A DNA stretch of 63,871 nucleotides, the filler included. It is 5 parts of 5 records of this genome, joined end to end, with 100 filler letters (N's around TTAATTAATTAA, not from the genome) between each part and the next. Parts side by side here need not be neighbours in the genome. Positions count along the whole stretch, not along the records: positions 49,699 to 57,655 come from SRR20825006_190; 4 more parts are not named here. One strand, written 5' to 3'. The first letter of the stretch is position 1, and every line of letters starts with the position of its first letter. Under the pieces are notes generated by a model. The model did not search any database. It was given only the letters and a program-made list of their open reading frames with translations, and had not been told where the DNA came from. The position numbers and the translations under genes are program-made. Of this stretch, positions 5,672 to 57,755 are shown piece after piece.

Positions 5672-7129
5672 CTACTCAACGTAAGGATTGTTTGGCCAGT
5701 TCATACTTGACGACTCATCTACTAAAATACTTGACGTCTCATCTTCGTTGAGCATACTCACTAAATACGCTTTTATCTTTCCAACTACAGCATCGATATT
5801 GCCTTCTAAGTTCATAATATGAGGACAAATTCTGAGCTCATTGGTTTTCCCTGCCCCTATTCCAGTATCGGCTACGGCAAATCTCCCCAAACTTGACGCT
5901 CCATATAAAAATGCATTTAATTGCGGGTGATTAAAAGGACTTCCATCTCTTTTAAGAAATTGCATCACTGTTACACCATTAGAGAAACGTCGAGAAACAG
6001 GTGTTGAATAAACAACCCTCAAGGACAACTCCCTTACCATTGCATCCAGCTTATCTCGTAAGTGTTTTTGAAGATCTTTAACTCTCTTTTCGATGTCCTC
6101 TCTCCCTATAATCAAATGTTCACTTACGGCACGCCCCATACCAATAAGGTTCGCTTCATCTCTTTGTCCAAGAAACTCAAATCGCGAAGTATTTTCTGGA
6201 ATCTCTTCAATGAAATCGATGTTTCCGTTGTAACCGTGAATGCTGATGTCAAAATTTTTGGCTTTTTCAGATTTCATGTACAAAATTCCCGTCTCGAACG
6301 GTCCCATCAACCACTTGTGAGAACTGGAAGAAAAACTATCACAGTCTGTCTCTTTCACATCGATTTTCAATGCTCCCCAACTTACCGCTCCATCAACATG
6401 AATGTGAATGGAGTTTTCATCTCTGTTAAATTCCGCTTTGATATACGCTCGAACCGCTTTAATAATTTCCGCTGTCGGCATCCGAATCCCAGAAACATTT
6501 GAAACTTCTGAAAAGCTCAATATCACAGTTTTCGCCGTAACTTTCTCCAGAATTCTTGCGATGATTGTTTGCTCAACCAAAGTGTCATCTTGATTAAAGT
6601 TTACTCCTTTCAATGAAAATTCTACGACCTGCGATCTGTTTGGACTTCGTTCTTTCCAAACGTGTCTATTTGTCGGATGGTTTTCGTCCCAAAGCAGCAC
6701 TTCATTCTCTCCCCAATTATTAAATCCTCGTGAAAGTTGATTGTTTGCTTCAGAGGTATTTCTCATAAAAGCAATGTTTTCTTTATCCCCACCAATATGT
6801 CTAGCTGTTACATCTCGCACGGCAGAAAGTACTCGTATAAAAAGCTCTCTTCGAAATTGCATGGAAATATCTCTATTGAACTGATCTCGATAGTTTGCGA
6901 TAAGCTCTAACGCCGGAAAAAAGGTCGGACATAAATTCGCTGAATTCATCGGTTCCACAAAAAATCTCACATTATTATTCGGGAAAAATGAGCCTCTTAC
7001 CCTCCTCCACTTCTCCTCTTCATTTTTAGCATACGGCTCATCGATTTGGTCAATTAACTCTTTTGAGAGAAGCGATTGATCTCCAAGCCAATTTAATAGT
7101 TCTTTAAATTCATCTGTTGCATTTTTCAT
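5672..7129 (-). CDS. Aminotransferase class V-fold PLP enzyme (isopenicillin-N epimerase / cysteine desulfurase-like)
   Basis: MNSANLCP, RNTSEA, HVDGA, PLP-lysine motif SSSHKW, LRICPH. Confidence 0.85.
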   Translation of the reverse strand: MKNATDEFKELLNWLGDQSLLSKELIDQIDEPYAKNEEEKWRRVRGSFFPNNNVRFFVEPMNSANLCPTFFPALELIANYRDQFNRDISMQFRRELFIRVLSAVRDVTARHIGGDKENIAFMRNTSEANNQLSRGFNNWGENEVLLWDENHPTNRHVWKERSPNRSQVVEFSLKGVNFNQDDTLVEQTIIARILEKVTAKTVILSFSEVSNVSGIRMPTAEIIKAVRAYIKAEFNRDENSIHIHVDGAVSWGALKIDVKETDCDSFSSSSHKWLMGPFETGILYMKSEKAKNFDISIHGYNGNIDFIEEIPENTSRFEFLGQRDEANLIGMGRAVSEHLIIGREDIEKRVKDLQKHLRDKLDAMVRELSLRVVYSTPVSRRFSNGVTVMQFLKRDGSPFNHPQLNAFLYGASSLGRFAVADTGIGAGKTNELRICPHIMNLEGNIDAVVGKIKAYLVSMLNEDETSSILVDESSSMNWPNNPYVE

Positions 7130-7487
7130 CGTGATTTGTTTTAGGTGATTGTTTTAATTACACACACAAAACTATCGCATGAACGATGATCAAAATAGAC
7201 CATAACTACGGGAAATGCAATTGCGGGAAATACGTATTGAGCAACTAAAAAAAACTCAGTTTACGTAAACCTCCACTTCTAGAGTCTCAGTGTTCGATTT
7301 ACCCACCTAAGTGTTCAATTTTAATATTCATCTCGGGAATAGCAACAGGCCTTTGTTACAAGGTTAAAAGATTTGAATGTGATAAATATGGAAAAACATC
7401 GCAATGAGCGACACCAATTTAAGTGGAGGTATTAGTAATCAGCTACTTTCATTGGATCAACCTCAATAAACGCCATTACTTTTAGCA

Positions 7488-7513
7488 GCCTGTTAGCAGA
7501 TAACTAACAGGCT
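7488..7513 (-). terminator. Hairpin downstream of the T9SS cargo gene
   Basis: AGCCTGTTAG-CAGATAA-CTAACAGGCT. Confidence 0.55.
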
Positions 7514-7528
7514 CAGTTCTAAAAGGTG

Positions 7529-9247
7529 TTACTCAATAATGAGTTTTTTAATTTGACCCGATTCTGAATGACGGATAAAATAAATCCCATTTGAAAGATC
7601 AGTTATGTCAATGTTATTTGTCGTTTCGCTCGCTCGGAAAGTTTTAATTACCGATCCAGCTGTTGTGATCAATTGAAAGTTATTGTTGTCACTTTCAGTT
7701 GGAATTTCAAGCACAAAGAACGTCTTCGCAGGATTTGGATACACTGTAAACTGATTGCTTAAATCAAGTTCATTAACTCCCACTCCATCTCCAACGCAAG
7801 AAATACTTCCATCTCCCACAGTTGTATCATTTACTTTACAAATAAAAATATCAGAATGATTGTTATTCAAACTTGTTACGGTATTTCCTTGGATATTTTT
7901 ACTATTTCGGAAATTCCCAATCAAATAAGGAATATCACCTTTAGAAACGGAAACATCTCCTATTGTACCATAACCGCCACTTTCCGTATGCATAGACCAA
8001 ACGAAATCTCCGTCAACATCTAATTTCACTAAAGCGACATCCACAACCGTTGAAGGAGCAGGAGTATAAACATCACTCATATTTATTGTTCCCCAAAATT
8101 CAAATGAGAAAAAGACTTCATTTAGTCGATTGATTGCTAGCCCTCTAATTACATCACCCTCCGTGCTTCCGTAACCTTTAAGCCATTGGCAATTCAAATC
8201 ACGATCAAATTTGGTGACAAAAGCATCACGTGCAGATGCCGTTGTAATTGAGAATGTATCAAGACTAACAGAAGTTTGAAATTCACCCAATACGATAGGT
8301 TCTCCACACTTGTCCAAAACGAGATCAAGGGCAGATCCGTATGGCGACTTGAAGATTTTGTATCCTTCCAGATTACCCGCAGCGTTTAATTTTACGATTG
8401 CCGTAAGGTCGGCTATTCCAGATGTGTCCGAACTGATTATGGTCGTTCCATCAATAACAAACCCAGAATCCAACGAGGCTAGCGCAAAATGCTCTCCCCA
8501 TTCGTTTTCTACAATTTTCCCAATACCATTTCCTCCATTTGATTCACCAGAAACCAAATGTTCTATTTGTTTTGCCCATAGAAAGTTTCCGCTCGTTGAC
8601 ATTCTTGCAATAAAACCACACGGAGGGTAAGGATTATTCAAATAAGGAACGTTTGGATTCCCTGGCAAGACAATACTTCCTAAGCTCAATTCTCGGTATA
8701 ATGCTCCTGAGACGAGTAATTCTTGATTTGGAGTTACGGTAACCTGCCCACCCAATCGCTTTGATTCAAAACTATTCGCGGCATCTGCACCAGTTATCCA
8801 TGCAATTGTTCCATTGGGAGTGATCTTCATAATGAAAAAATCAAGAGCTCCTGTCGGGTTTCCGCTATAGGATGCAGACCCAAAACTGACTGTTCCTCCA
8901 ACAAACGACGCCAACACATAGATATTTCCCGAGGTATCAATATCCATACTTCCAAATTCAACAGCGTTACTAGACTGCGTACTATTGCTCTGGATGATCC
9001 ATTGCGATACTCCGTTTTCGTTATACTTTTGAATAAACGTGTTCACTGGAGCTGTTGAACCACCTCCACCACCCAAAGAAGGTGTATAGTGATAACCAGC
9101 AATGATGGAGTTCCCATCTTTATCGTTAACAATTTGAATATCCTGAGCGATCCCATCTTCCCAGCGACTGGAAAACTGGGTAACGACTTGCGCATCTAAG
9201 GAAATGCTTACTATACATAGTAGAGCAGAAATACAAAATCGAATCAT
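7529..9247 (-). CDS. T9SS-secreted beta-propeller (SBBP-like) protein
   Basis: Signal peptide; repeated D-x-F-x-x-K...G-x-x-x-W blades; C-terminal VYPNP...LSNGIYFI...KKLIIE type A CTD. Confidence 0.88.
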   Translation of the reverse strand: MIRFCISALLCIVSISLDAQVVTQFSSRWEDGIAQDIQIVNDKDGNSIIAGYHYTPSLGGGGGSTAPVNTFIQKYNENGVSQWIIQSNSTQSSNAVEFGSMDIDTSGNIYVLASFVGGTVSFGSASYSGNPTGALDFFIMKITPNGTIAWITGADAANSFESKRLGGQVTVTPNQELLVSGALYRELSLGSIVLPGNPNVPYLNNPYPPCGFIARMSTSGNFLWAKQIEHLVSGESNGGNGIGKIVENEWGEHFALASLDSGFVIDGTTIISSDTSGIADLTAIVKLNAAGNLEGYKIFKSPYGSALDLVLDKCGEPIVLGEFQTSVSLDTFSITTASARDAFVTKFDRDLNCQWLKGYGSTEGDVIRGLAINRLNEVFFSFEFWGTINMSDVYTPAPSTVVDVALVKLDVDGDFVWSMHTESGGYGTIGDVSVSKGDIPYLIGNFRNSKNIQGNTVTSLNNNHSDIFICKVNDTTVGDGSISCVGDGVGVNELDLSNQFTVYPNPAKTFFVLEIPTESDNNNFQLITTAGSVIKTFRASETTNNIDITDLSNGIYFIRHSESGQIKKLIIE

Positions 9248-28947: not shown

Positions 28948-29047
28948 NNNNNNNNNNNNNNNNNNNNNNNNNNNNNNNNNNNNNNNNNNNNTTAATTAAT
29001 TAANNNNNNNNNNNNNNNNNNNNNNNNNNNNNNNNNNNNNNNNNNNN
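28948..29047. other. Artificial contig linker
   Basis: N44-TTAATTAATTAA-N44 (stops in all six frames); abrupt GC change across it. Confidence 0.98.
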
Positions 29048-36147: not shown

Positions 36148-36247
36148 NNNNNNNNNNNNNNNNNNNNNNNNNNNNNNNNNNNNNNNNNNNNTTAATTAAT
36201 TAANNNNNNNNNNNNNNNNNNNNNNNNNNNNNNNNNNNNNNNNNNNN
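36148..36247. other. Artificial contig linker
   Basis: Same N44-TTAATTAATTAA-N44 spacer. Confidence 0.98.
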
Positions 36248-49598: not shown

Positions 49599-49698
49599 NN
49601 NNNNNNNNNNNNNNNNNNNNNNNNNNNNNNNNNNNNNNNNNNTTAATTAATTAANNNNNNNNNNNNNNNNNNNNNNNNNNNNNNNNNNNNNNNNNNNN
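49599..49698. other. Artificial contig linker
   Basis: Same spacer. Confidence 0.98.
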
Positions 49699-49794
49699 TT
49701 CCAATTTAGGAAATACAAAATATCCCTCTGCCTGAGAAGCCCATTTTCCTAATGGCCCTTTGTTCTCAATAATCCTATCAAATAAATCTCTCAT
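49699..49794 (-). CDS. N-terminal 32 aa of an alpha-oxoamine synthase (class I/II PLP fold), probable cysteate-fatty acyltransferase CapB; truncated
   Basis: MRDLFDRIIENKGPLGKWASQAEGYFVFPKLE, recognised as the N-terminus of the flavobacterial AONS/SPT-like enzyme; missing from the ORF track; TACTTTTG promoter motif upstream. Confidence 0.72.
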
Positions 49795-49880
49795 GTAAAT
49801 GGAGTTTCTTTTATGTTCAAATAAACGTTAAATTTACAGCACGCAAAAGTAACTAAATTTAAACTCTTATCATAAATTTT

Positions 49881-50741
49881 TTACTTTTCTTCTACAAGTT
49901 TCTTAAACTGTTTTTGAAACATCTTATCTAAGAACTTATCTGGAAAAACATGAATTGCTAGCCAAAACAACCACTTTTTAGGGGCTACCAAGTAGCGAGT
50001 CTTGTTCTTTTTTCCTCCATATATTCCGTAGATTAAATTCGACACTTCGCTAGCTTCTAAAGCAATACCTTCCATTCCTTGTACGGCTTTATCCATATTG
50101 TCGTAAATTTTTTCGTACGGAGTATTTTTATATTTATTCACCTGTGTTTCTGCATCTGCTTTTGCTTTATTCCAAATTTCAGATTTTATTGGTCCTGGTT
50201 CTATTACTGTTACCTCTATTCCAAAGTCATTTAATTCTCTTCTAAATCCATCCGATAATGCTTCTACTGCATATTTAGATGCTGAATAAGGCGCCATAAA
50301 GGGTCTTGTTACCCTCCCAGAACCACTACTAATATTAATAATTCTTCCTTTAGGACGATTATTATCAAAACCTAAAAGAGGAAGAAAAGCTTGTGTAACA
50401 CGTAAAACGCCAAGTACATTTATGTTTAACTGACTTGAAAATTCTTCAATAGGAATATACGCTAAGGGTCCGTTTACAGATACCCCAGCATTATTTACTA
50501 AGCAATCTAAGGACGCTCCATCTAAAATGTTTTCAACTTCTAAGGATGCTTTTTTTATAGCCTCTTCATCTATAACATCAAATAGAAGCGGATGAAAATT
50601 TGCTCCTAATTTTTCTTTTAACGCTGCAGCATCTTCTTTTTTTCTAACGCTACCAAAAACTAAAAAACCCTTATCTAAAAATAATTTTGCTGTTGTATAG
50701 CCTATCCCAGAAGAAACTCCTGTTATTAATATATTTTTCAT
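49881..50741 (-). CDS. SDR family oxidoreductase
   Basis: TGVSSGIG, NNAG, YSASK, IEPG; hydrophobic C-terminal patch WLFWLAIHVF. Confidence 0.9.
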   Translation of the reverse strand: MKNILITGVSSGIGYTTAKLFLDKGFLVFGSVRKKEDAAALKEKLGANFHPLLFDVIDEEAIKKASLEVENILDGASLDCLVNNAGVSVNGPLAYIPIEEFSSQLNINVLGVLRVTQAFLPLLGFDNNRPKGRIINISSGSGRVTRPFMAPYSASKYAVEALSDGFRRELNDFGIEVTVIEPGPIKSEIWNKAKADAETQVNKYKNTPYEKIYDNMDKAVQGMEGIALEASEVSNLIYGIYGGKKNKTRYLVAPKKWLFWLAIHVFPDKFLDKMFQKQFKKLVEEK

Positions 50742-50773
50742 TTATACTTTTTTATTGCGATGCTCAATCTTCT

Positions 50774-51637
50774 TTATACTGATTTTAATTCTTGCATCGC
50801 CTTTATTGCATTTTCCTCAGCTTTTTGATCTTTGTAATGTTTCCATTTTTCTCCTGCTAAGTAATTCATTCCATTATCTACTGTAAAAAGTCGTACTAAA
50901 TTAGACAAACCTTTTGCTTTAGTTTTTAGCGAATTGTTAGCTCTAAGTGCTAATGAATAGCCTCCTTTAGAATAATACACATAATGCCACCACAATTTAG
51001 GAATAAATAATGTTTCTCCATGTTCTATTGTAGCCTCTAAGCCTTTAGCATATTTATAAGCTGGATATTTATTATAATCTGGATTTAAAACATCCAAATG
51101 TGAATGATTGGTATATGGTAATTTATATAGTAATTGTGATTGTTCTTGCGGAAATAAATATACTTTTTTCTGCGTTTGAAAATGCGTTAAAAACACATGA
51201 GAACAATCTATATCATAATGAAGGTTAAGTGCCGATCCTTTTCCTCCAAAAAACATTAAAGCAAACTTTAAAAAGCCATTCATTATGGTTGGAGTTTCAT
51301 AATCTTTTGCAAGTTCTGGAGCTCGTTTCATTATTTGAAAATTATGAAATCTTAAACTTGTAGGCTTTGTCTCTATAATATTTAGATAATCTCTAAATTT
51401 TTTATGAGAAACCGGTTTCATATAACCATTCCCTGGGTTATGATAAGAATCATCATACATAGGAATTTCCCAATCTCCGTAATTTTCTTTAAAAAAATCA
51501 AAAGTCCATTTCGTAGTCGCTCTCCAATTTTTGGCTAAGTCTTTAAATATTACTGGTGTATTGGTTGAAAGATACCTTTCTTTAAATTCCTTTTTGGTGA
51601 TGTTTTCTACTTTATCAACCAAATTGAAATTAGACAT
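50774..51637 (-). CDS. JmjC / Cupin_8 Fe(II)-2OG-dependent oxygenase
   Basis: PVIF...W...W JmjC N-terminus, HYD (HxD) and GETLFIPKLWWHYV distal His. Confidence 0.88.
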   Translation of the reverse strand: MSNFNLVDKVENITKKEFKERYLSTNTPVIFKDLAKNWRATTKWTFDFFKENYGDWEIPMYDDSYHNPGNGYMKPVSHKKFRDYLNIIETKPTSLRFHNFQIMKRAPELAKDYETPTIMNGFLKFALMFFGGKGSALNLHYDIDCSHVFLTHFQTQKKVYLFPQEQSQLLYKLPYTNHSHLDVLNPDYNKYPAYKYAKGLEATIEHGETLFIPKLWWHYVYYSKGGYSLALRANNSLKTKAKGLSNLVRLFTVDNGMNYLAGEKWKHYKDQKAEENAIKAMQELKSV

Positions 51638-51646
51638 CTTATAATT

Positions 51647-52687
51647 TTATTTTATATATTCTATTTTTTGTGTTTCTTCTGTATTAATAGCATCAAAAAA
51701 TCCTTGAGCTCTCATCCAATCGTCGCTATATATTTTACTCATATATCTAGAACCATGGTCAGGAAAAATCATAACTACATTACTATTTTCATCAAATTCT
51801 CCTTCTTCTGCTAATTGTTTCACGGCTTGCATAACAGCGCCACTTGTATAACCTACAAAGCAACCTTCAGTTTTAGAAATCTCTCGGGCAGTATGGGCAC
51901 TTTCTTCATCTGTAACTTTGATAAATTTATCTATTACATCAAAATCTGTTGCCGTTGGAATCAAATTTTTTCCTAAACCTTCTATTCTATATGGATAGAT
52001 TTCATCAGAATCAAACTCTCTTGTTTCGTGATACTTTTTGAGTACAGAACCGTAGGCATCTACTCCTATTACTTTTACAGCAGGATTTTTTTCTTTTAAG
52101 AATCTAGCAGTTCCAGAAATAGTTCCTCCAGTTCCACTACAAGCTATAAAATGAGTTATTTGTCCGGCTGTTTGCTCCCAAATTTCAGGACCTGTAGATT
52201 GGTAATGCGCATCTATATTAAGTTCATTAAAGTATTGATTAATATAAACAGAACCTTTCATTTCGTCATGCATCCGCCTTGCTACTTGATAGTAAGATCT
52301 AGGATCGTCTGCACTTACATGCGCTGGACAAACATATACTTTTGCGCCCATGGCACGTAACATATCTATTTTATCGGGAGAAGATTTAGAACTAACGGCA
52401 AGAATACAATCGTATCCCTTAATTACACTAACCATGGCAATACTAAAACCAGTATTTCCAGAAGTAGTTTCAATAATTGTGTCGCCAGGTTTTAAAATCC
52501 CTTTACGTTCTGCTTCTTCAATAATGTGTAGCGCTATACGATCCTTACTAGAATGACCCGGGTTGAAAGCTTCTACTTTAGCGTAAAAATTTCCGATAAG
52601 ATTTTGGGTTATTTTTTTAAGCTTTAGTAATGGGGTATTCCCTATTAAATCTAAAACATTATCGTAAGCATTTATCTTTTGTTTCAT
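51647..52687 (-). CDS. PLP-dependent cysteine synthase/CBS family, probable cysteate synthase CapA
   Basis: [39 protein letters not shown]. Confidence 0.85.
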
Positions 52688-52759
52688 ATAAACAATTTGG
52701 TTAGATACAAAATAGTTTTGAATTCCTCCAAACCATGCAAATTTAATTATTTTTTTTAA

Positions 52760-54892
52760 TTACTGCCGGATTCCTTCCAAATCTAATAGGAATGCATACT
52801 CTTCTGCAACCTCTTTTAAGGCTTCAAATCTTCCCGAAGCTCCCCCATGGCCTGCATCCATATTAATATGAAACAATAAAAGGTTATCGCCTTTTTTAAC
52901 ATTTCTTAACTTTGCTACCCACTTTGCTGGCTCCCAATATTGCACTTGAGAATCATGTAATCCTGTTGTGACTAATAAATTTGGATACACTTTTTTTTCC
53001 ACATTATCATATGGGGAATACTCTTTTATATAGTTGTAATACTCCTTATTGTTTGGATTTCCCCACTCATCATATTCTCCTGTTGTTAATGGAATGGATT
53101 CGTCTAACATAGTAGTAACTACATCTACAAAAGGAACTGCTGCAATAACTCCGTTATAAAGTTCTGGAGCATTATTAATTACAGCCCCCATTAGAAGTCC
53201 CCCTGCAGAACCTCCCATAGCATACAAGTGCTTATTGGAAGTATAATTTTCTTCAATTAAAAATTTAGAACAATCTACAAAATCGGTAAATGTGTTTTTC
53301 TTTGTTAATAGTTTTCCATCCTCATACCATTTTCTTCCTAAATATTCCCCGCCACGAATATGTGCAATAGCATAAATAAATCCACGGTCCAATAACGATA
53401 ATCTAACGGTAGAAAAATACGGATCTATAGTAGCCCCATAAGAACCATATCCATATAATAGTAATGGATTTTTACCGTCTTTTTTAATTCCTTTTTTATA
53501 AACTAAGGAAATCGGAATCATAGTTCCATCTCCAGCTTTTGCCCAGATACGCTCAGAGGCATAATTATCTTTATCAAACTTCCCTCCTAGCACTTCCTGC
53601 TCTTTTAATACTGTTTTTTCCTTAGAAATCATATCAAAATCTACCGTACTCGAAGGCGTTGTCAAAGAATTATACACATAACGAAGCGTATCTGTATCAA
53701 ACTCTAAATTGGTGGATGGAAATACTGTGTAAGTTTCATTATCAAACGGAATGTAATATTCATTAGTTCCATCCCAACGGGTAACCTTAATTTTATTTAA
53801 CCCATTAGAGCGTTCACTAACAACCAAGTAATCTTTAAAAATGTCGATATCTTCTAATAATACATCTTCTCTATGCGGAATAACTTCCTCCCAATTTTCT
53901 TTTGTGGTTTTATCCACAGAAGTTTTCATCAGTTTAAAATTGGTTGCTTTATCTGCATTGGTAATAATGTAAAACGAATCTTTATAATGAGAAATACTGT
54001 ATTCCAAACCTCTAATTCTAGGTTGAAAAACGGTTAATTCCTCATCTGGGTTATCTGCATCCAAAAAGCTATATTCAGAAGTTAATGTACTTCCTGAACC
54101 AAAAACAATATATTTTTTAGACTTCGTTTTGTAAACAAAAGCATTAAAGGTTTCGTCTTTTTCGTTATAAACCAGCTCATCTTCAGCGTTTTTCTGCCCT
54201 AAAATATGCTTATAAACTTTATCAGACCTTAAAGTTTGTTCATCTTTTCGAGTGTAAAACAAGGTTTTATTATCATTTGCCCAAGTACTTCCTCCTGTAG
54301 TATTTTCTATTTTTAAAGGAAGTATTTCTCCTGTTTCTAAGTTTTTAACTTGAAGAGTATACTTTCTTCTACTTAAAGTATCCACTCCAAAAACAGCTAA
54401 TTTATTATCTGGACTGATATTAATTCCTCTTAAATTGAAGTAAGAAAAATCTTTTGCCATTTCATTACAGTCAAACATAACCTCTTCCACAGCACCATCA
54501 ACATCCTTTTTACGAATATAAACAGGATAATCCTTCCCTTCTTCATACTTGGTTATGTACCAATACCCATTGTATTTATAGGGTACCGACTCATCGTCTT
54601 CTTTTATACGCCCCTTCATTTCTTTAAACAAATCCTCTTCAAAAGCATCGGTATGTGCGGTCATTTTTTCAAAATAAGCATTTTCACGCTCTAGATAATC
54701 AATTACTTCTGGATTCTCTCTTTCGTTCATCCAATAGTAATCGTCTATTCTTATATCTCCATGTTTTTCAAGGGTTACAGGCTTTTTATCTGCAATTGGA
54801 GGGGTAATCTCTTTCATATTTTTAGTTTCTTTCTTTTTACAGGAAGCCACAAAAATAAGACATAGCAAAGGAATGAGAAGACGGATATTCAT
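52760..54892 (-). CDS. ptrB: Oligopeptidase B (S9A), lipoprotein
   Basis: DDYYW, YGYGSYG, GGSAGG nucleophile, HDSQV, AGHGG. Confidence 0.93.
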   Translation of the reverse strand: MNIRLLIPLLCLIFVASCKKKETKNMKEITPPIADKKPVTLEKHGDIRIDDYYWMNERENPEVIDYLERENAYFEKMTAHTDAFEEDLFKEMKGRIKEDDESVPYKYNGYWYITKYEEGKDYPVYIRKKDVDGAVEEVMFDCNEMAKDFSYFNLRGINISPDNKLAVFGVDTLSRRKYTLQVKNLETGEILPLKIENTTGGSTWANDNKTLFYTRKDEQTLRSDKVYKHILGQKNAEDELVYNEKDETFNAFVYKTKSKKYIVFGSGSTLTSEYSFLDADNPDEELTVFQPRIRGLEYSISHYKDSFYIITNADKATNFKLMKTSVDKTTKENWEEVIPHREDVLLEDIDIFKDYLVVSERSNGLNKIKVTRWDGTNEYYIPFDNETYTVFPSTNLEFDTDTLRYVYNSLTTPSSTVDFDMISKEKTVLKEQEVLGGKFDKDNYASERIWAKAGDGTMIPISLVYKKGIKKDGKNPLLLYGYGSYGATIDPYFSTVRLSLLDRGFIYAIAHIRGGEYLGRKWYEDGKLLTKKNTFTDFVDCSKFLIEENYTSNKHLYAMGGSAGGLLMGAVINNAPELYNGVIAAVPFVDVVTTMLDESIPLTTGEYDEWGNPNNKEYYNYIKEYSPYDNVEKKVYPNLLVTTGLHDSQVQYWEPAKWVAKLRNVKKGDNLLLFHINMDAGHGGASGRFEALKEVAEEYAFLLDLEGIRQ

Positions 54893-54954
54893 ATTAATTT
54901 ATTTTAGATACATTCTTCTAATTTAGTAATTTTGTTGAAATAAAATATAAAATT

Positions 54955-55278
54955 ATGTTTGGAGACCTAATGGGAATGATGGGGAAATTAAAAGAAACCC
55001 AACAAAAAATAGAAGAAACTAAAAAACGTTTAGATACAATAACGGTTTCTGAAGAGAGTGCCGATAAGCTTTTATCTATAACAATGACTGCAAATCGTGA
55101 GTTAAAATCTTTAGAAATAAATGATGAATTATTGCAGGATAAAGAACAATTAGAAGATTATTTAGTTTTACATATAAATAAAGCAATTGAACAAGCTACT
55201 AAAATTAATGAAGCCGAATTAGGAGCTGTAGCTAAAGAAGGAATGCCAAATATTCCTGGAATGGATATGTTTAAATAG
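54955..55278 (+). CDS. YbaB/EbfC family nucleoid-associated protein
   Basis: Met/Gly-rich ends, LEDYLV, typical length. Confidence 0.85.
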
Positions 55279-55320
55279 TTTTTGGCTTAGTCTTTGCAAT
55301 AAAAACTTAAAAAAATATAA

Positions 55321-55758
55321 ATGAAGATTTTTATTTCCCTTTTCATAACTGCTTTTATGCTTACTTCTAGCACAAATAATGTAGAATGGTATACCGATTT
55401 TTCTGAAGCAAAAAGTATAGCTAAACATGAAAAGAAAAATATAATGATGTATTTTACTGGAAGCGATTGGTGTGGCCCTTGCAAAATGCTAAAAGCAGAT
55501 TTATTTGACACGGATGAATTTAGAGAACTGTCTAAAGACTATGTTCTTGTAAAGGTAGACATTCCAAGAAGAGTGGATATTATTTCTCCTGAACAACTTA
55601 AAAAAAATAAAGAATTACTTTCCGATTATAATTCGCAAAAAGTATTTCCTAAAATTGTTTTTTTAAATTCTAGAGGAAAAAAAATAGATGAAATTGAAGG
55701 GTATAATTCACTTAGAGATCCTCGTAATTATTTTAAAATGATAAAAAAGCATCAATAA
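55321..55758 (+). CDS. Secreted thioredoxin-family protein
   Basis: Signal peptide, FTGSDWCGPC, cis-Pro motif VFP. Confidence 0.88.
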   Translation: MKIFISLFITAFMLTSSTNNVEWYTDFSEAKSIAKHEKKNIMMYFTGSDWCGPCKMLKADLFDTDEFRELSKDYVLVKVDIPRRVDIISPEQLKKNKELLSDYNSQKVFPKIVFLNSRGKKIDEIEGYNSLRDPRNYFKMIKKHQ

Positions 55759-55839
55759 ACTTCAATATTTAATACAGAAGTTTGTTTACCACGAATTCAC
55801 AAATGTATTTTTATCTCTGTGAATTTAGTAGCTAAGCAT

Positions 55840-55873
55840 AAAAAAAGAGCTGTTTTCACAGCTCTTTTTTTTT
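55840..55873. terminator. Bidirectional intrinsic terminator
   Basis: AAAAAAAGAGCTG-TTTTCA-CAGCTCTTTTTTT between convergent genes. Confidence 0.8.
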
Positions 55874-55987
55874 GAATCCGTTCCATAGAAACCTATTCCT
55901 AAAGATTCAAACATAACAAAGTAATTCATTTCGACTCAAATTACCGAGAATTAACCCGTTATGAGGGATTTAAATTGAAAAAGTTGG

Positions 55988-57088
55988 TTAGTTATTTATC
56001 AATCTAAATTCTGTTCTTCTATTTACTGCATGCTCACGTTCTGTACAAGATACTCCGTCTGAACATCTGTTTTTAAGTTTTGATTCTCCATAACCGTTTG
56101 CCACTAATAAACTTCTATTAACTCCTTTTTCTACTAAGTAATTAGCAACCGCCTGTGCTCTTCTTTCAGATAATGTTTGGTTACTCTCTTTAGTTCCTCT
56201 AGAATCTGTATGAGAAGCTAACTCAACTTTAACCCCAGGATTCTGTTGCAAAACAGGCATTAAGTTTTCGTCTATAATTCTCTTAGCTTCTGGTGTTAAT
56301 GTATAACTTGCTAAATTCCAATTTATAGGTAACGCGTTATATTCAACCAGCGTACACTCTACTTCTTTCCATGTTGTTAAACCTCCTTTTGTTTGAAGTA
56401 CTTCATGAGAAACTGTATTGTAAACCGCAGGTATTGTTTCCTCCACTGTATAAGCATCTTTTACCAATACAGTTTTAGTAATTTCATCATATTCAGCAGG
56501 AATTTCTACCTCTTCTACTCTTGCTGGTTCTACAATTACTTCTTTAGTATAACTATCAAACCTTTCTGCAACTGGAGAAGAAACTGTTGAAGCATCTGCG
56601 GCTAAAACTTCCTTTTGAAAGGTTTCATACTCCGCAGGATATCCTTTATAACACCAATACCTACAATCGTCTGGGTTAGACGATTCACAATCTGGTGCCG
56701 GAGCGCCTAATTCCCATTGCGCATATGCAGGTTTCATCTCTATAGTTTCTGAGCTTGGAGAAAAAGTTGCAGGCACAATTTCTAACTCATTAGAAGGTTC
56801 TTTAGAAACATAAGAAACTGTTTCTGTACCCCATTTTGCAGGAACAATAGTAAGTTTTTTACTAGCTTCTTTTACCAAAACTCTTTCTGTTACCGTTTTG
56901 TATTCTGCGGGATAGGTTTTTAAAACCTTATATGCTGGTTTTACCATAATTTGTACATCTTCATTAACATACACATCTGGCGTTGTACAACGAACATAAC
57001 ACTTTCCCGGTTCTGGATTCTCTGGCAAGTCTTGAGAAAATGCCCCATAACTACATGCCAATAAGAATAAAAATAAAATTCTTTTCAT
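55988..57088 (-). CDS. OmpA-C domain protein with repetitive N-terminal region
   Basis: Signal peptide from ATG 57088; repeats like VLVKEA...IPAEY; SHTDSRG, LSERRA, NRRTEF. Confidence 0.88.
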   Translation of the reverse strand: MKRILFLFLLACSYGAFSQDLPENPEPGKCYVRCTTPDVYVNEDVQIMVKPAYKVLKTYPAEYKTVTERVLVKEASKKLTIVPAKWGTETVSYVSKEPSNELEIVPATFSPSSETIEMKPAYAQWELGAPAPDCESSNPDDCRYWCYKGYPAEYETFQKEVLAADASTVSSPVAERFDSYTKEVIVEPARVEEVEIPAEYDEITKTVLVKDAYTVEETIPAVYNTVSHEVLQTKGGLTTWKEVECTLVEYNALPINWNLASYTLTPEAKRIIDENLMPVLQQNPGVKVELASHTDSRGTKESNQTLSERRAQAVANYLVEKGVNRSLLVANGYGESKLKNRCSDGVSCTEREHAVNRRTEFRLINN

Positions 57089-57281
57089 GATTTTTTTAAT
57101 TAAGTGATTAGTATTAAGCAACATATAGTGCTTGAGGGAAAGAGTATTTAACATAAAATTAGGAATAACTTTATAAAATATCAAATTAATCCTCATTAAA
57201 TTATCATTAAAAATGCCTATTTTCCTGTCCTATTTGAAGCTTACTATTAAATTTCGGACACAAAAACTAACTATTTACTAT

Positions 57282-57602
57282 ATGTTTAAGATTTTATTGA
57301 TAAAAAATAAAGCCTTAGTCGCTTTTGAGTTTAAAACTCCAAATAACCAACTATTATTTACTAGTAATTATTACGCTAGTAAAGAACAAGCCCTTGCTGT
57401 TATTGAGGCTATAAAAGATAATACTCATTATAAATATGAAAGAAAAACGAATGTAGATGGAAAGTTTTATTTTGTGATAAATACTAATAATGGAGAAATT
57501 ATCGGTAAAAGTCAGGTGTATTCTTCAGAAGCAGGAATGGAAAACGGAATAAATACAATGAAAAAAAATATCCCTTCAGCTGCCATAAAAAGTATAAACT
57601 AA
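57282..57602 (+). CDS. YegP/DUF1508 family protein
   Basis: Two DUF1508-like repeats, NGEIIGKSQVYSSEAGMENGI. Confidence 0.85.
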   Translation: MFKILLIKNKALVAFEFKTPNNQLLFTSNYYASKEQALAVIEAIKDNTHYKYERKTNVDGKFYFVINTNNGEIIGKSQVYSSEAGMENGINTMKKNIPSAAIKSIN

Positions 57603-57655
57603 AATTCATTTTTCTTTATTGTTGCCCGATAAAAGTTAACGGAATTTATTGAACT

Positions 57656-57755
57656 NNNNNNNNNNNNNNNNNNNNNNNNNNNNNNNNNNNNNNNNNNNNT
57701 TAATTAATTAANNNNNNNNNNNNNNNNNNNNNNNNNNNNNNNNNNNNNNNNNNNN
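57656..57755. other. Artificial contig linker
   Basis: Same spacer. Confidence 0.98.

Follow-up and report, generated by a model that had tools for sequence, protein, structure and literature searches.

A JmjC-only oxygenase gene and an SDR gene between capA and capB in a putative sulfonolipid operon of marine Galbibacter

Known sulfonolipid systems and the present locus

Sulfonolipids are outer-membrane lipids of gliding Bacteroidota and act on animal immune receptors. Hydroxylated sulfonolipids trigger or block the formation of colonies by a choanoflagellate. Known hydroxylated forms include 2-hydroxyacyl capnines and rosette-inducing factor 1 (RIF-1), which has a 3,5-dihydroxy base. Here a stretch of DNA of 63,871 nt (the window) was analysed, in which a putative capnine-type sulfonolipid operon carries two genes between capA and capB. 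One encodes a JmjC-only Fe(II)/2-oxoglutarate oxygenase (the JmjC protein) and the other a short-chain dehydrogenase/reductase (SDR).

The capnine pathway of CapA, CapB and CapC was described for Capnocytophaga ochracea and Ornithobacterium rhinotracheale (Liu et al., 2022, as given in PMC12927429, PMC11211663 and PMC10191378). The present locus resembles it in that CapA passed the curated CapA model, CapB is near a solved cysteate-C-fatty acyltransferase and an SDR is present in the operon. It differs in that the Galbibacter operon has an additional JmjC oxygenase gene inside. The core CapA/CapB/CapC pathway is already published. A condensing enzyme of the same kind as CapB is SulA/CFAT of Alistipes finegoldii and Chryseobacterium gleum (PDB 7u7h, matched at 2.4e-173; PMC11211663). 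The same paper shows that in C. gleum and A. finegoldii the 3-keto intermediate can be reduced by several unlinked SDRs (Wu et al., 2024), and that the KCR reductases of these species are scattered, away from cfat and cys, whereas the Galbibacter SDR is inside the operon.

Fe(II)/2-oxoglutarate enzymes that 2-hydroxylate lipids have been described in the aspartyl/asparaginyl beta-hydroxylase family, namely LpxO, OlsC and OlsD (PMC12971839). The JmjC protein is like these in its proposed action only, as an Fe(II)/2-oxoglutarate enzyme of a ‘protein hydroxylase’ family that would hydroxylate the acyl chain of a membrane lipid. It is not in their family, matching only Cupin_8 and JmjC in Pfam and having a JMJD5-like fold. 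The biosynthetic origin of hydroxylated sulfonolipids was described as an open question by Peng et al. (2023; PMC10501047). No paper assigning a sulfonolipid-tailoring oxygenase was found in the literature search, outside whose reach subscription papers may bear on the point, and no paper pairing a sulfonolipid with a cupin was found in the literature searched.

The cap locus is on the fourth piece of the window, at 49699-57655 (SRR20825006_190; 7,957 bases, G+C content 0.319), and its genes are on the minus strand. capA (51647..52687; NCBIfam NF053679, Pfam PALP 3.8e-79) encodes a predicted cysteate synthase, a pyridoxal phosphate enzyme with the CBS/CysK fold. The JmjC gene (50774..51637; Pfam Cupin_8 6e-32) encodes 287 residues and is proposed to be a sulfonolipid-tailoring oxygenase. 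The SDR gene (49881..50741; Pfam adh_short 1.6e-46) encodes a classical NADP(H)-type enzyme of 286 residues, proposed to be a 3-ketocapnine (dehydrocapnine) reductase. The 5' end of capB, for the cysteate-C-fatty acyltransferase, follows at 49699..49794. Intergenic gaps are 72 nt between an upstream peptidase gene and capA, 9 nt between capA and JmjC, 32 nt between JmjC and SDR and 86 nt between SDR and capB. Gene calling thus reproduced the same-strand order of ptrB, a CysK-like gene, JmjC, SDR and an oxoamine synthase, with gaps of 9 and 32 nt, that was reported in an earlier reading made from the letters alone (the sequence-only reading). The N-terminus of an alpha-oxoamine synthase noted there is present as 32 codons of capB; its shortness reflects the end of the contig at 49699, an assembly edge, and is no feature of the gene. 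The closest genome among those searched, that of Galbibacter orientalis DSM 19592 (G001), has the same locus with 99-100% protein identity and a full capB. A metagenome contig (L097) holds the complete operon, with a JmjC protein 100% identical to the window's.

The locus was read as a capnine-type sulfonolipid operon of marine Galbibacter in which the SDR is a CapC-type reductase and the JmjC protein is an oxygenase acting on the sulfonolipid or a lipid precursor. This whole reading is given a probability somewhat above even.

To the extent that sequence can show it, the genes on either side of the insert encode CapA and CapB, which was also the starting point of the sequence-only reading. 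CapA scored 660.5 bits against NCBIfam NF053679 (CysteaSynCapA; cut-off 600), and fell below the cut-offs of the CBS model TIGR01137 (383.6 vs 510) and of CysK (267.1 vs 351). Its top solved relative was matched at 533.6 bits, whereas true cystathionine beta-synthases reached 273. CapB was assessed on the full G001 protein (420 residues), the first 32 residues of which are identical to the fragment in the window. It matched PDB 28eh (‘Cysteate-C-fatty acyltransferase’) at 1.5e-221 over residues 1-419, PDB 7u7h at 2.4e-173 and serine palmitoyltransferases (SPT) at ~6e-71, and was below the cut-off in every NCBIfam SPT, Kbl and BioF model.

No terminator-like site was found on the coding strand of the locus, all three such sites being on the opposite strand (2.3 expected). 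Together with the gaps of 9, 32 and 86 nt, this is consistent with a single transcript. A promoter scan gave 22 sites against 24.8 expected, and thus no signal. Small parts of the locus were covered in a metatranscriptome (four RNA-library runs), in which uncovered parts carry no information. One RNA-library contig (X16, 203 letters, at 50609-50811) spans the JmjC/SDR junction with identity of at least 99%; DNA contamination is possible there, and the contig is not proof of a transcript.

The other pieces of the window are separated by spacers (N...TTAATTAATTAA...N) at 28948-29047, 36148-36247, 49599-49698 and 57656-57755, which join five contigs in all. The G+C contents of the five pieces are 0.38, 0.65, 0.33, 0.32 and 0.54, indicating a mixture of several organisms' DNA.

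The JmjC protein and the SDR

The JmjC protein matched Pfam Cupin_8 (PF13621) with 112 bits, against a gathering score of 27.4. No Pfam match beyond Cupin_8 and JmjC was found at E up to 0.01, and no NCBIfam match. Residues H140, D142, H218 and K157 are invariant across an alignment of 27 relatives (47-83% identity), and correspond in alignment to the JMJD5 residues that bind iron (the triad) and 2-oxoglutarate (the lysine). The HxD...H triad that had been seen in the letters is therefore intact, and K157 is added to it. An AlphaFold2 model was obtained with a predicted local distance difference score (pLDDT) of 93.8 and a predicted template modelling score (pTM) of 0.91. A Foldseek search with this model ranked JMJD5 first (1.6e-22, template modelling (TM) score 0.83-0.87 on the target, 24-26% identity), followed by TYW5, JMJD7, FIH and JMJD6. 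Two long C-terminal helices are modelled at residues 237-286, which we take to resemble the dimerisation helices of FIH and TYW5. By its residues and fold, the protein is an intact JmjC-only oxygenase.

With JMJD5, JMJD7, FIH, JMJD6 and TYW5 it shares the double-stranded beta-helix, the HxD...H iron triad and the 2-oxoglutarate lysine. It differs from them in being a bacterial, single-domain protein of 287 residues with 17-26% identity to them, and in a genomic context that suggests a lipid pathway as against a protein or tRNA substrate.

The SDR has the motifs TGVSSGIG (residues 7-14), R33-K34-K35 and Y152-x3-K156. Arg or Lys after the second strand is a sign of NADPH use and a reductive role. 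The hydrophobic C-terminal patch mentioned in the sequence-only reading was seen, as the stretch KKWLFWLAIHVF. The closest solved relative is the retinol/steroid dehydrogenase DHRS9 (5.2e-33). In two genomes with adjacent capA and capB no close homologue of the SDR was found (best 33-38% identity), and so the SDR is regarded as an added gene and not as a housekeeping gene that was moved.

Relatives of the SDR were collected in an order-level sample (Flavobacteriales, 401 genomes, E <=1e-55). They were present in 19 genomes, from six genera of six families, with 46-52% identity apart from G001. In 16 of the 18 loci other than that of G001, from five other genera and five other families, the SDR lies between capA and capB; of the remaining two, one is beside capB only and one has no cap gene in the 3.8 kb flank examined. 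Two loci of a second Flavobacteriales family (L187, L188) have JmjC together with SDR between capA and capB. Fourteen of the 18 have the SDR in a cap operon without JmjC, as do two Flavobacteriaceae loci described below. No O. rhinotracheale protein was named among the best 120 SDR relatives listed, nor among the listed relatives of a capA-SDR-capB reductase from another family, whose only names are ‘Weeksellaceae bacterium’ and ‘Flavobacteriaceae bacterium’. Because the order capA-SDR-capB recurs, the SDR is probably a 3-ketocapnine reductase of the CapC type; this synteny lends support to the same assignment made earlier.

Distribution of the insert and linkage to cap genes

CapB was present in 293 of 301 sampled Flavobacteriaceae genomes (300 genera). 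Sixty capB loci, limited to CapB proteins with 85% or more identity to the query, were taken from 150 listed matches (the top 20 below G001, and 40 more from positions throughout the list). capA and capB were adjacent in 56 of them, with a gap of 100-602 nt, and the usual adjacency given for this family in the sequence-only reading holds. JmjC and SDR together were between capA and capB in two loci, one from a second Galbibacter and one from a Leptobacterium-like genome. By this survey, which had been proposed earlier, the insert is rare in the family. The SDR alone was between capA and capB in two loci (L038, L041), in which no JmjC remnants were found. By eye, a GC-rich terminator-like hairpin with a T run was read after capA in both (L038, 5628-6071; L041, 5870-5977), so that SDR and capB may be a separate transcription unit there.

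A JmjC orthologue was present in only three of the 301 Flavobacteriaceae genomes, a fourth match (41% identity) being a paralogue. Among named genomes that carry the orthologue, all 12 loci have the order peptidase-capA-JmjC-SDR-capB (Galbibacter 6, Joostella 2, Robertkochia 3, Leptobacterium 1), and because of this recurrence the gene order is considered non-random. Identity to the window across these genomes was 91-100% for CapB, 80-100% for CapA, 66-99% for JmjC and 59-100% for the SDR. The ratio of non-synonymous to synonymous substitution rates (dN/dS) was ~0.05-0.10 for JmjC and 0.04 for the SDR, indicating purifying selection, with dS saturated and the ratios rough.

Metagenomes were scanned with the JmjC alignment, and the best 80 of 193 relatives were taken. 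Twenty-six of the 80 loci were cap-linked, with the gene between or beside capA and capB. Four of these were Galbibacter-like (capA-JmjC-SDR-capB), 18 were capA-JmjC-capB without SDR, two ran capA-JmjC to a contig end and two were capA-capB-JmjC (L153, L154). The 22 linked loci without SDR have CapA 53-65% and CapB 64-69% identical to the window's, and therefore represent another lineage. One member (L136) shares 85% identity with a protein labelled Saprospiraceae at NCBI, and the lineage is probably Saprospiraceae, a label resting on this member. These contigs are not all independent, since three pairs carry identical JmjC proteins.

A quick maximum-likelihood tree was built of 113 JmjC proteins. 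Relatives with at least 44% identity form one well-supported clade. The Flavobacteriales genes accompanied by cap genes and SDR fall in one starred clade, shared with unlinked genes, and a second starred clade holds 20 capA-JmjC-capB genes and one unlinked gene (L170). Two cap-linked genes (L108, L146) were placed elsewhere. Cap linkage requires at least seven changes on this tree, gains or losses, of which four are imposed by starred (well-supported) branches. Grouping all cap-linked JmjC genes in one clade was rejected by the approximately unbiased (AU) test at p = 1.7e-32, a value that is indicative only because the tested group was defined after the first tree. Two unlinked relatives have a lipid gene directly after them: L170 (5983-8032) a fatty acid desaturase gene (PF00487) and L112 (5108-6630) a fatty acid hydroxylase gene (PF04116).

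Both inserts have thus entered, or persisted in, the cap operon of several lineages, each without the other, and the SDR and JmjC are regarded as separate modules tied to sulfonolipid synthesis; the suggestion that they form a working pair finds no support here.

Some further arrangements were seen in cap operons. In a partial public protein of 440 residues (P0042), the C-terminus of CapA reads into JmjC, with six linker residues replacing the stop codon and the 9 nt; this could be a genuine CapA-JmjC fusion, or else reflect an error in sequencing. Small genes of other kinds also sit in cap-operon spacers, namely a HEPN-domain gene (L149, 2949-3368) and two open reading frames with no Pfam match (L162, 6087-6608; L153, 686-1009).

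Distant Cupin_8 paralogues (33-36% identity) were also seen in three Flavobacteriaceae genomes, in a block of beta-ketoacyl synthase, biotin synthase (bioB), Cupin_8 and recX genes (L004, 3232-7593; L020, 7885-12458, with two tandem Cupin_8 copies; L022, 4883-9410). The neighbours of the distant Cupin_8 paralogues were varied, with no lipid theme found except in this block. In one other family (L010, L011, L013, L014, L015), two Cupin_8 paralogues, in tandem or split by a DUF3050 gene, are beside fasciclin-domain genes.

The gene upstream of capA (52760..54892, minus strand) encodes an oligopeptidase B-like S9 serine peptidase with both S9 domains (Pfam Peptidase_S9_N 1.9e-103, Peptidase_S9 8.4e-71). 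The label ptrB used in the sequence-only reading is right as to this likeness and goes too far as an exact name, the protein scoring 774.8 bits against the NCBIfam equivalog for oligopeptidase B (NF007511), which has a cut-off of 1313. The order peptidase-capA-capB, in the same orientation, was present in all 60 sampled Flavobacteriaceae loci (L037-L096, one per genus). Among the capA-JmjC-capB loci from metagenomes, none gave a peptidase match.

Alternative explanations and the proposed pathway

Several observations weigh against a sulfonolipid role for the two inserted genes. The substrates of all solved relatives of the JmjC protein are protein side chains or tRNA, and never lipids. In a class-level sample of 401 genomes, 55 had a JmjC family member; 20 loci from 17 genomes, not counting the G001 locus, were examined, and none had a cap gene in the flanks examined; their neighbours were varied. 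In the metagenome scan, 54 of the 80 loci had no cap gene in the flanks examined; overall, flanks were short in 31 of the 111 JmjC genes classified. The unlinked genes L101-L105 fall inside the Galbibacter JmjC clade. CapB-like genes were present in 353 of the 401 class-level genomes (a tally that includes an unpublished genome, G181), so that co-occurrence of JmjC with CapB is uninformative; they were also present in five of five genomes with unlinked JmjC relatives. One Galbibacter metagenome-assembled genome (L036) has JmjC split over three frames (7001-7829) and capA, SDR and capB whole; the split marks either a pseudogene or a fault of assembly. The SDR passed no curated model, scoring 146.1 bits against KdsR (NCBIfam NF049977; cut-off 400). 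Because unlinked SDRs can reduce 3-ketocapnine (PMC11211663), a clustered SDR is optional for the pathway.

The JmjC gene might have nothing to do with sulfonolipids and have inserted repeatedly into an intergenic site that is permissive and well expressed. Most of its relatives are indeed not cap-linked and have varied neighbours, and the capA-capB spacer accepts unrelated genes, such as the HEPN gene of L149. Against this, the same family is found in the same operon across lineages (CapB 64-69% identity), is kept in 12 named genomes and is under purifying selection, which makes chance unlikely, and the probability of this explanation is put low. Lower again is put that of a protein hydroxylase that modifies CapA, CapB, acyl carrier protein or another protein, by which sulfonolipid synthesis would be regulated in an O2-dependent manner with the lipid unchanged. 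Its nearest solved structures are the protein-acting JMJD5, JMJD7, FIH and JMJD6 and the tRNA-acting TYW5, the C-terminal helices at 237-286 (presumably like the dimerisation helices of FIH and TYW5) point the same way, and linkage to cap genes would suit a regulator of the Cap enzymes too. However, identity to those solved enzymes is low (24-26%), two unlinked relatives adjoin the lipid desaturase and hydroxylase genes of L170 and L112, and LpxO, OlsC and OlsD are lipid-acting precedents (PMC12971839). A further candidate substrate is the sulfonate head group or its precursor, with the carbon that bears the sulfonate being hydroxylated and sulfite released, in the manner of a taurine dioxygenase, to feed CapA or recycle capnine, or with hydroxylation of cysteate. 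The JmjC gene begins 9 nt after capA, and CapA requires sulfite. JmjC enzymes of the FIH type place a hydroxyl group on the beta carbon of Asp and Asn, and cysteate is aspartate's sulfonate counterpart. Yet the protein had no Pfam match to the TauD family at E up to 0.01, hydroxylation beside the sulfonate would break up the head group made by this operon, and L153 and L154 carry JmjC after capB instead of after capA. Action on the head group is accordingly held to be the most improbable of these explanations.

The remaining alternative concerns the SDR, which might not be a 3-keto reductase and might instead oxidise or epimerise a hydroxyl of a later intermediate, possibly one made by the JmjC protein. 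This would agree with the failure to pass a curated reductase model, with DHRS9 (5.2e-33) as the closest solved relative and with the reduction of 3-ketocapnine by other, unlinked SDRs (PMC11211663). On the other hand, R33-K34-K35 fits NADPH and a reductive role. The SDR cannot depend on a JmjC product, because 14 of the 18 order-level loci and the two Flavobacteriaceae loci have it without JmjC. A later-step role is considered unlikely, and is the strongest of the alternatives weighed here.

The JmjC protein is thus most likely tied to sulfonolipid synthesis, and probably as a hydroxylase. That it acts on a sulfonolipid had been proposed in the sequence-only reading. This proposal is strengthened by relatives that occur, some with an SDR and some without, in the cap operons of at least two lineages far apart; its substrate, like that of the SDR and like the kind of oxidation and its position on the base or the N-acyl chain, we infer from sequence. 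The further link to RIF-type lipids and rosette induction is speculation, as nothing here supports it or ties the JmjC protein to the hydroxylated sulfonolipids known so far.

In the pathway as proposed, CapA would form cysteate from phosphoserine and sulfite, and CapB would form 3-ketocapnine from cysteate and a fatty acyl thioester. The SDR would be a CapC-type enzyme dedicated to the NADPH-dependent reduction of 3-ketocapnine, and its hydrophobic C-terminal helix would keep it at the membrane. The JmjC protein would be a small, soluble and active Fe(II)/2-oxoglutarate oxygenase that oxidises a C-H bond in the sulfonolipid or in one of its lipid precursors, yielding a variant sulfonolipid. 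Hydroxylation would be the most likely reaction, and desaturation less so; hydroxylation is favoured because it is the default chemistry of the JmjC-type enzyme family.

More tentatively, and with less than even confidence, a bacterial JmjC-only clade, from Flavobacteriales and a second Bacteroidota lineage (probably Saprospiraceae), may consist of capnine-type sulfonolipid hydroxylases. If this is true, JmjC-only hydroxylases would gain their first lipid substrate, and the clade would provide the missing enzyme behind the extra hydroxyls of sulfonolipids such as the rosette-inducing factors. The chemistry of JmjC-only oxygenases would be widened if the enzyme acts on the lipid. The cap-operon JmjC gene is a concrete candidate gene, and a marker that may predict which bacteria make modified sulfonolipids.

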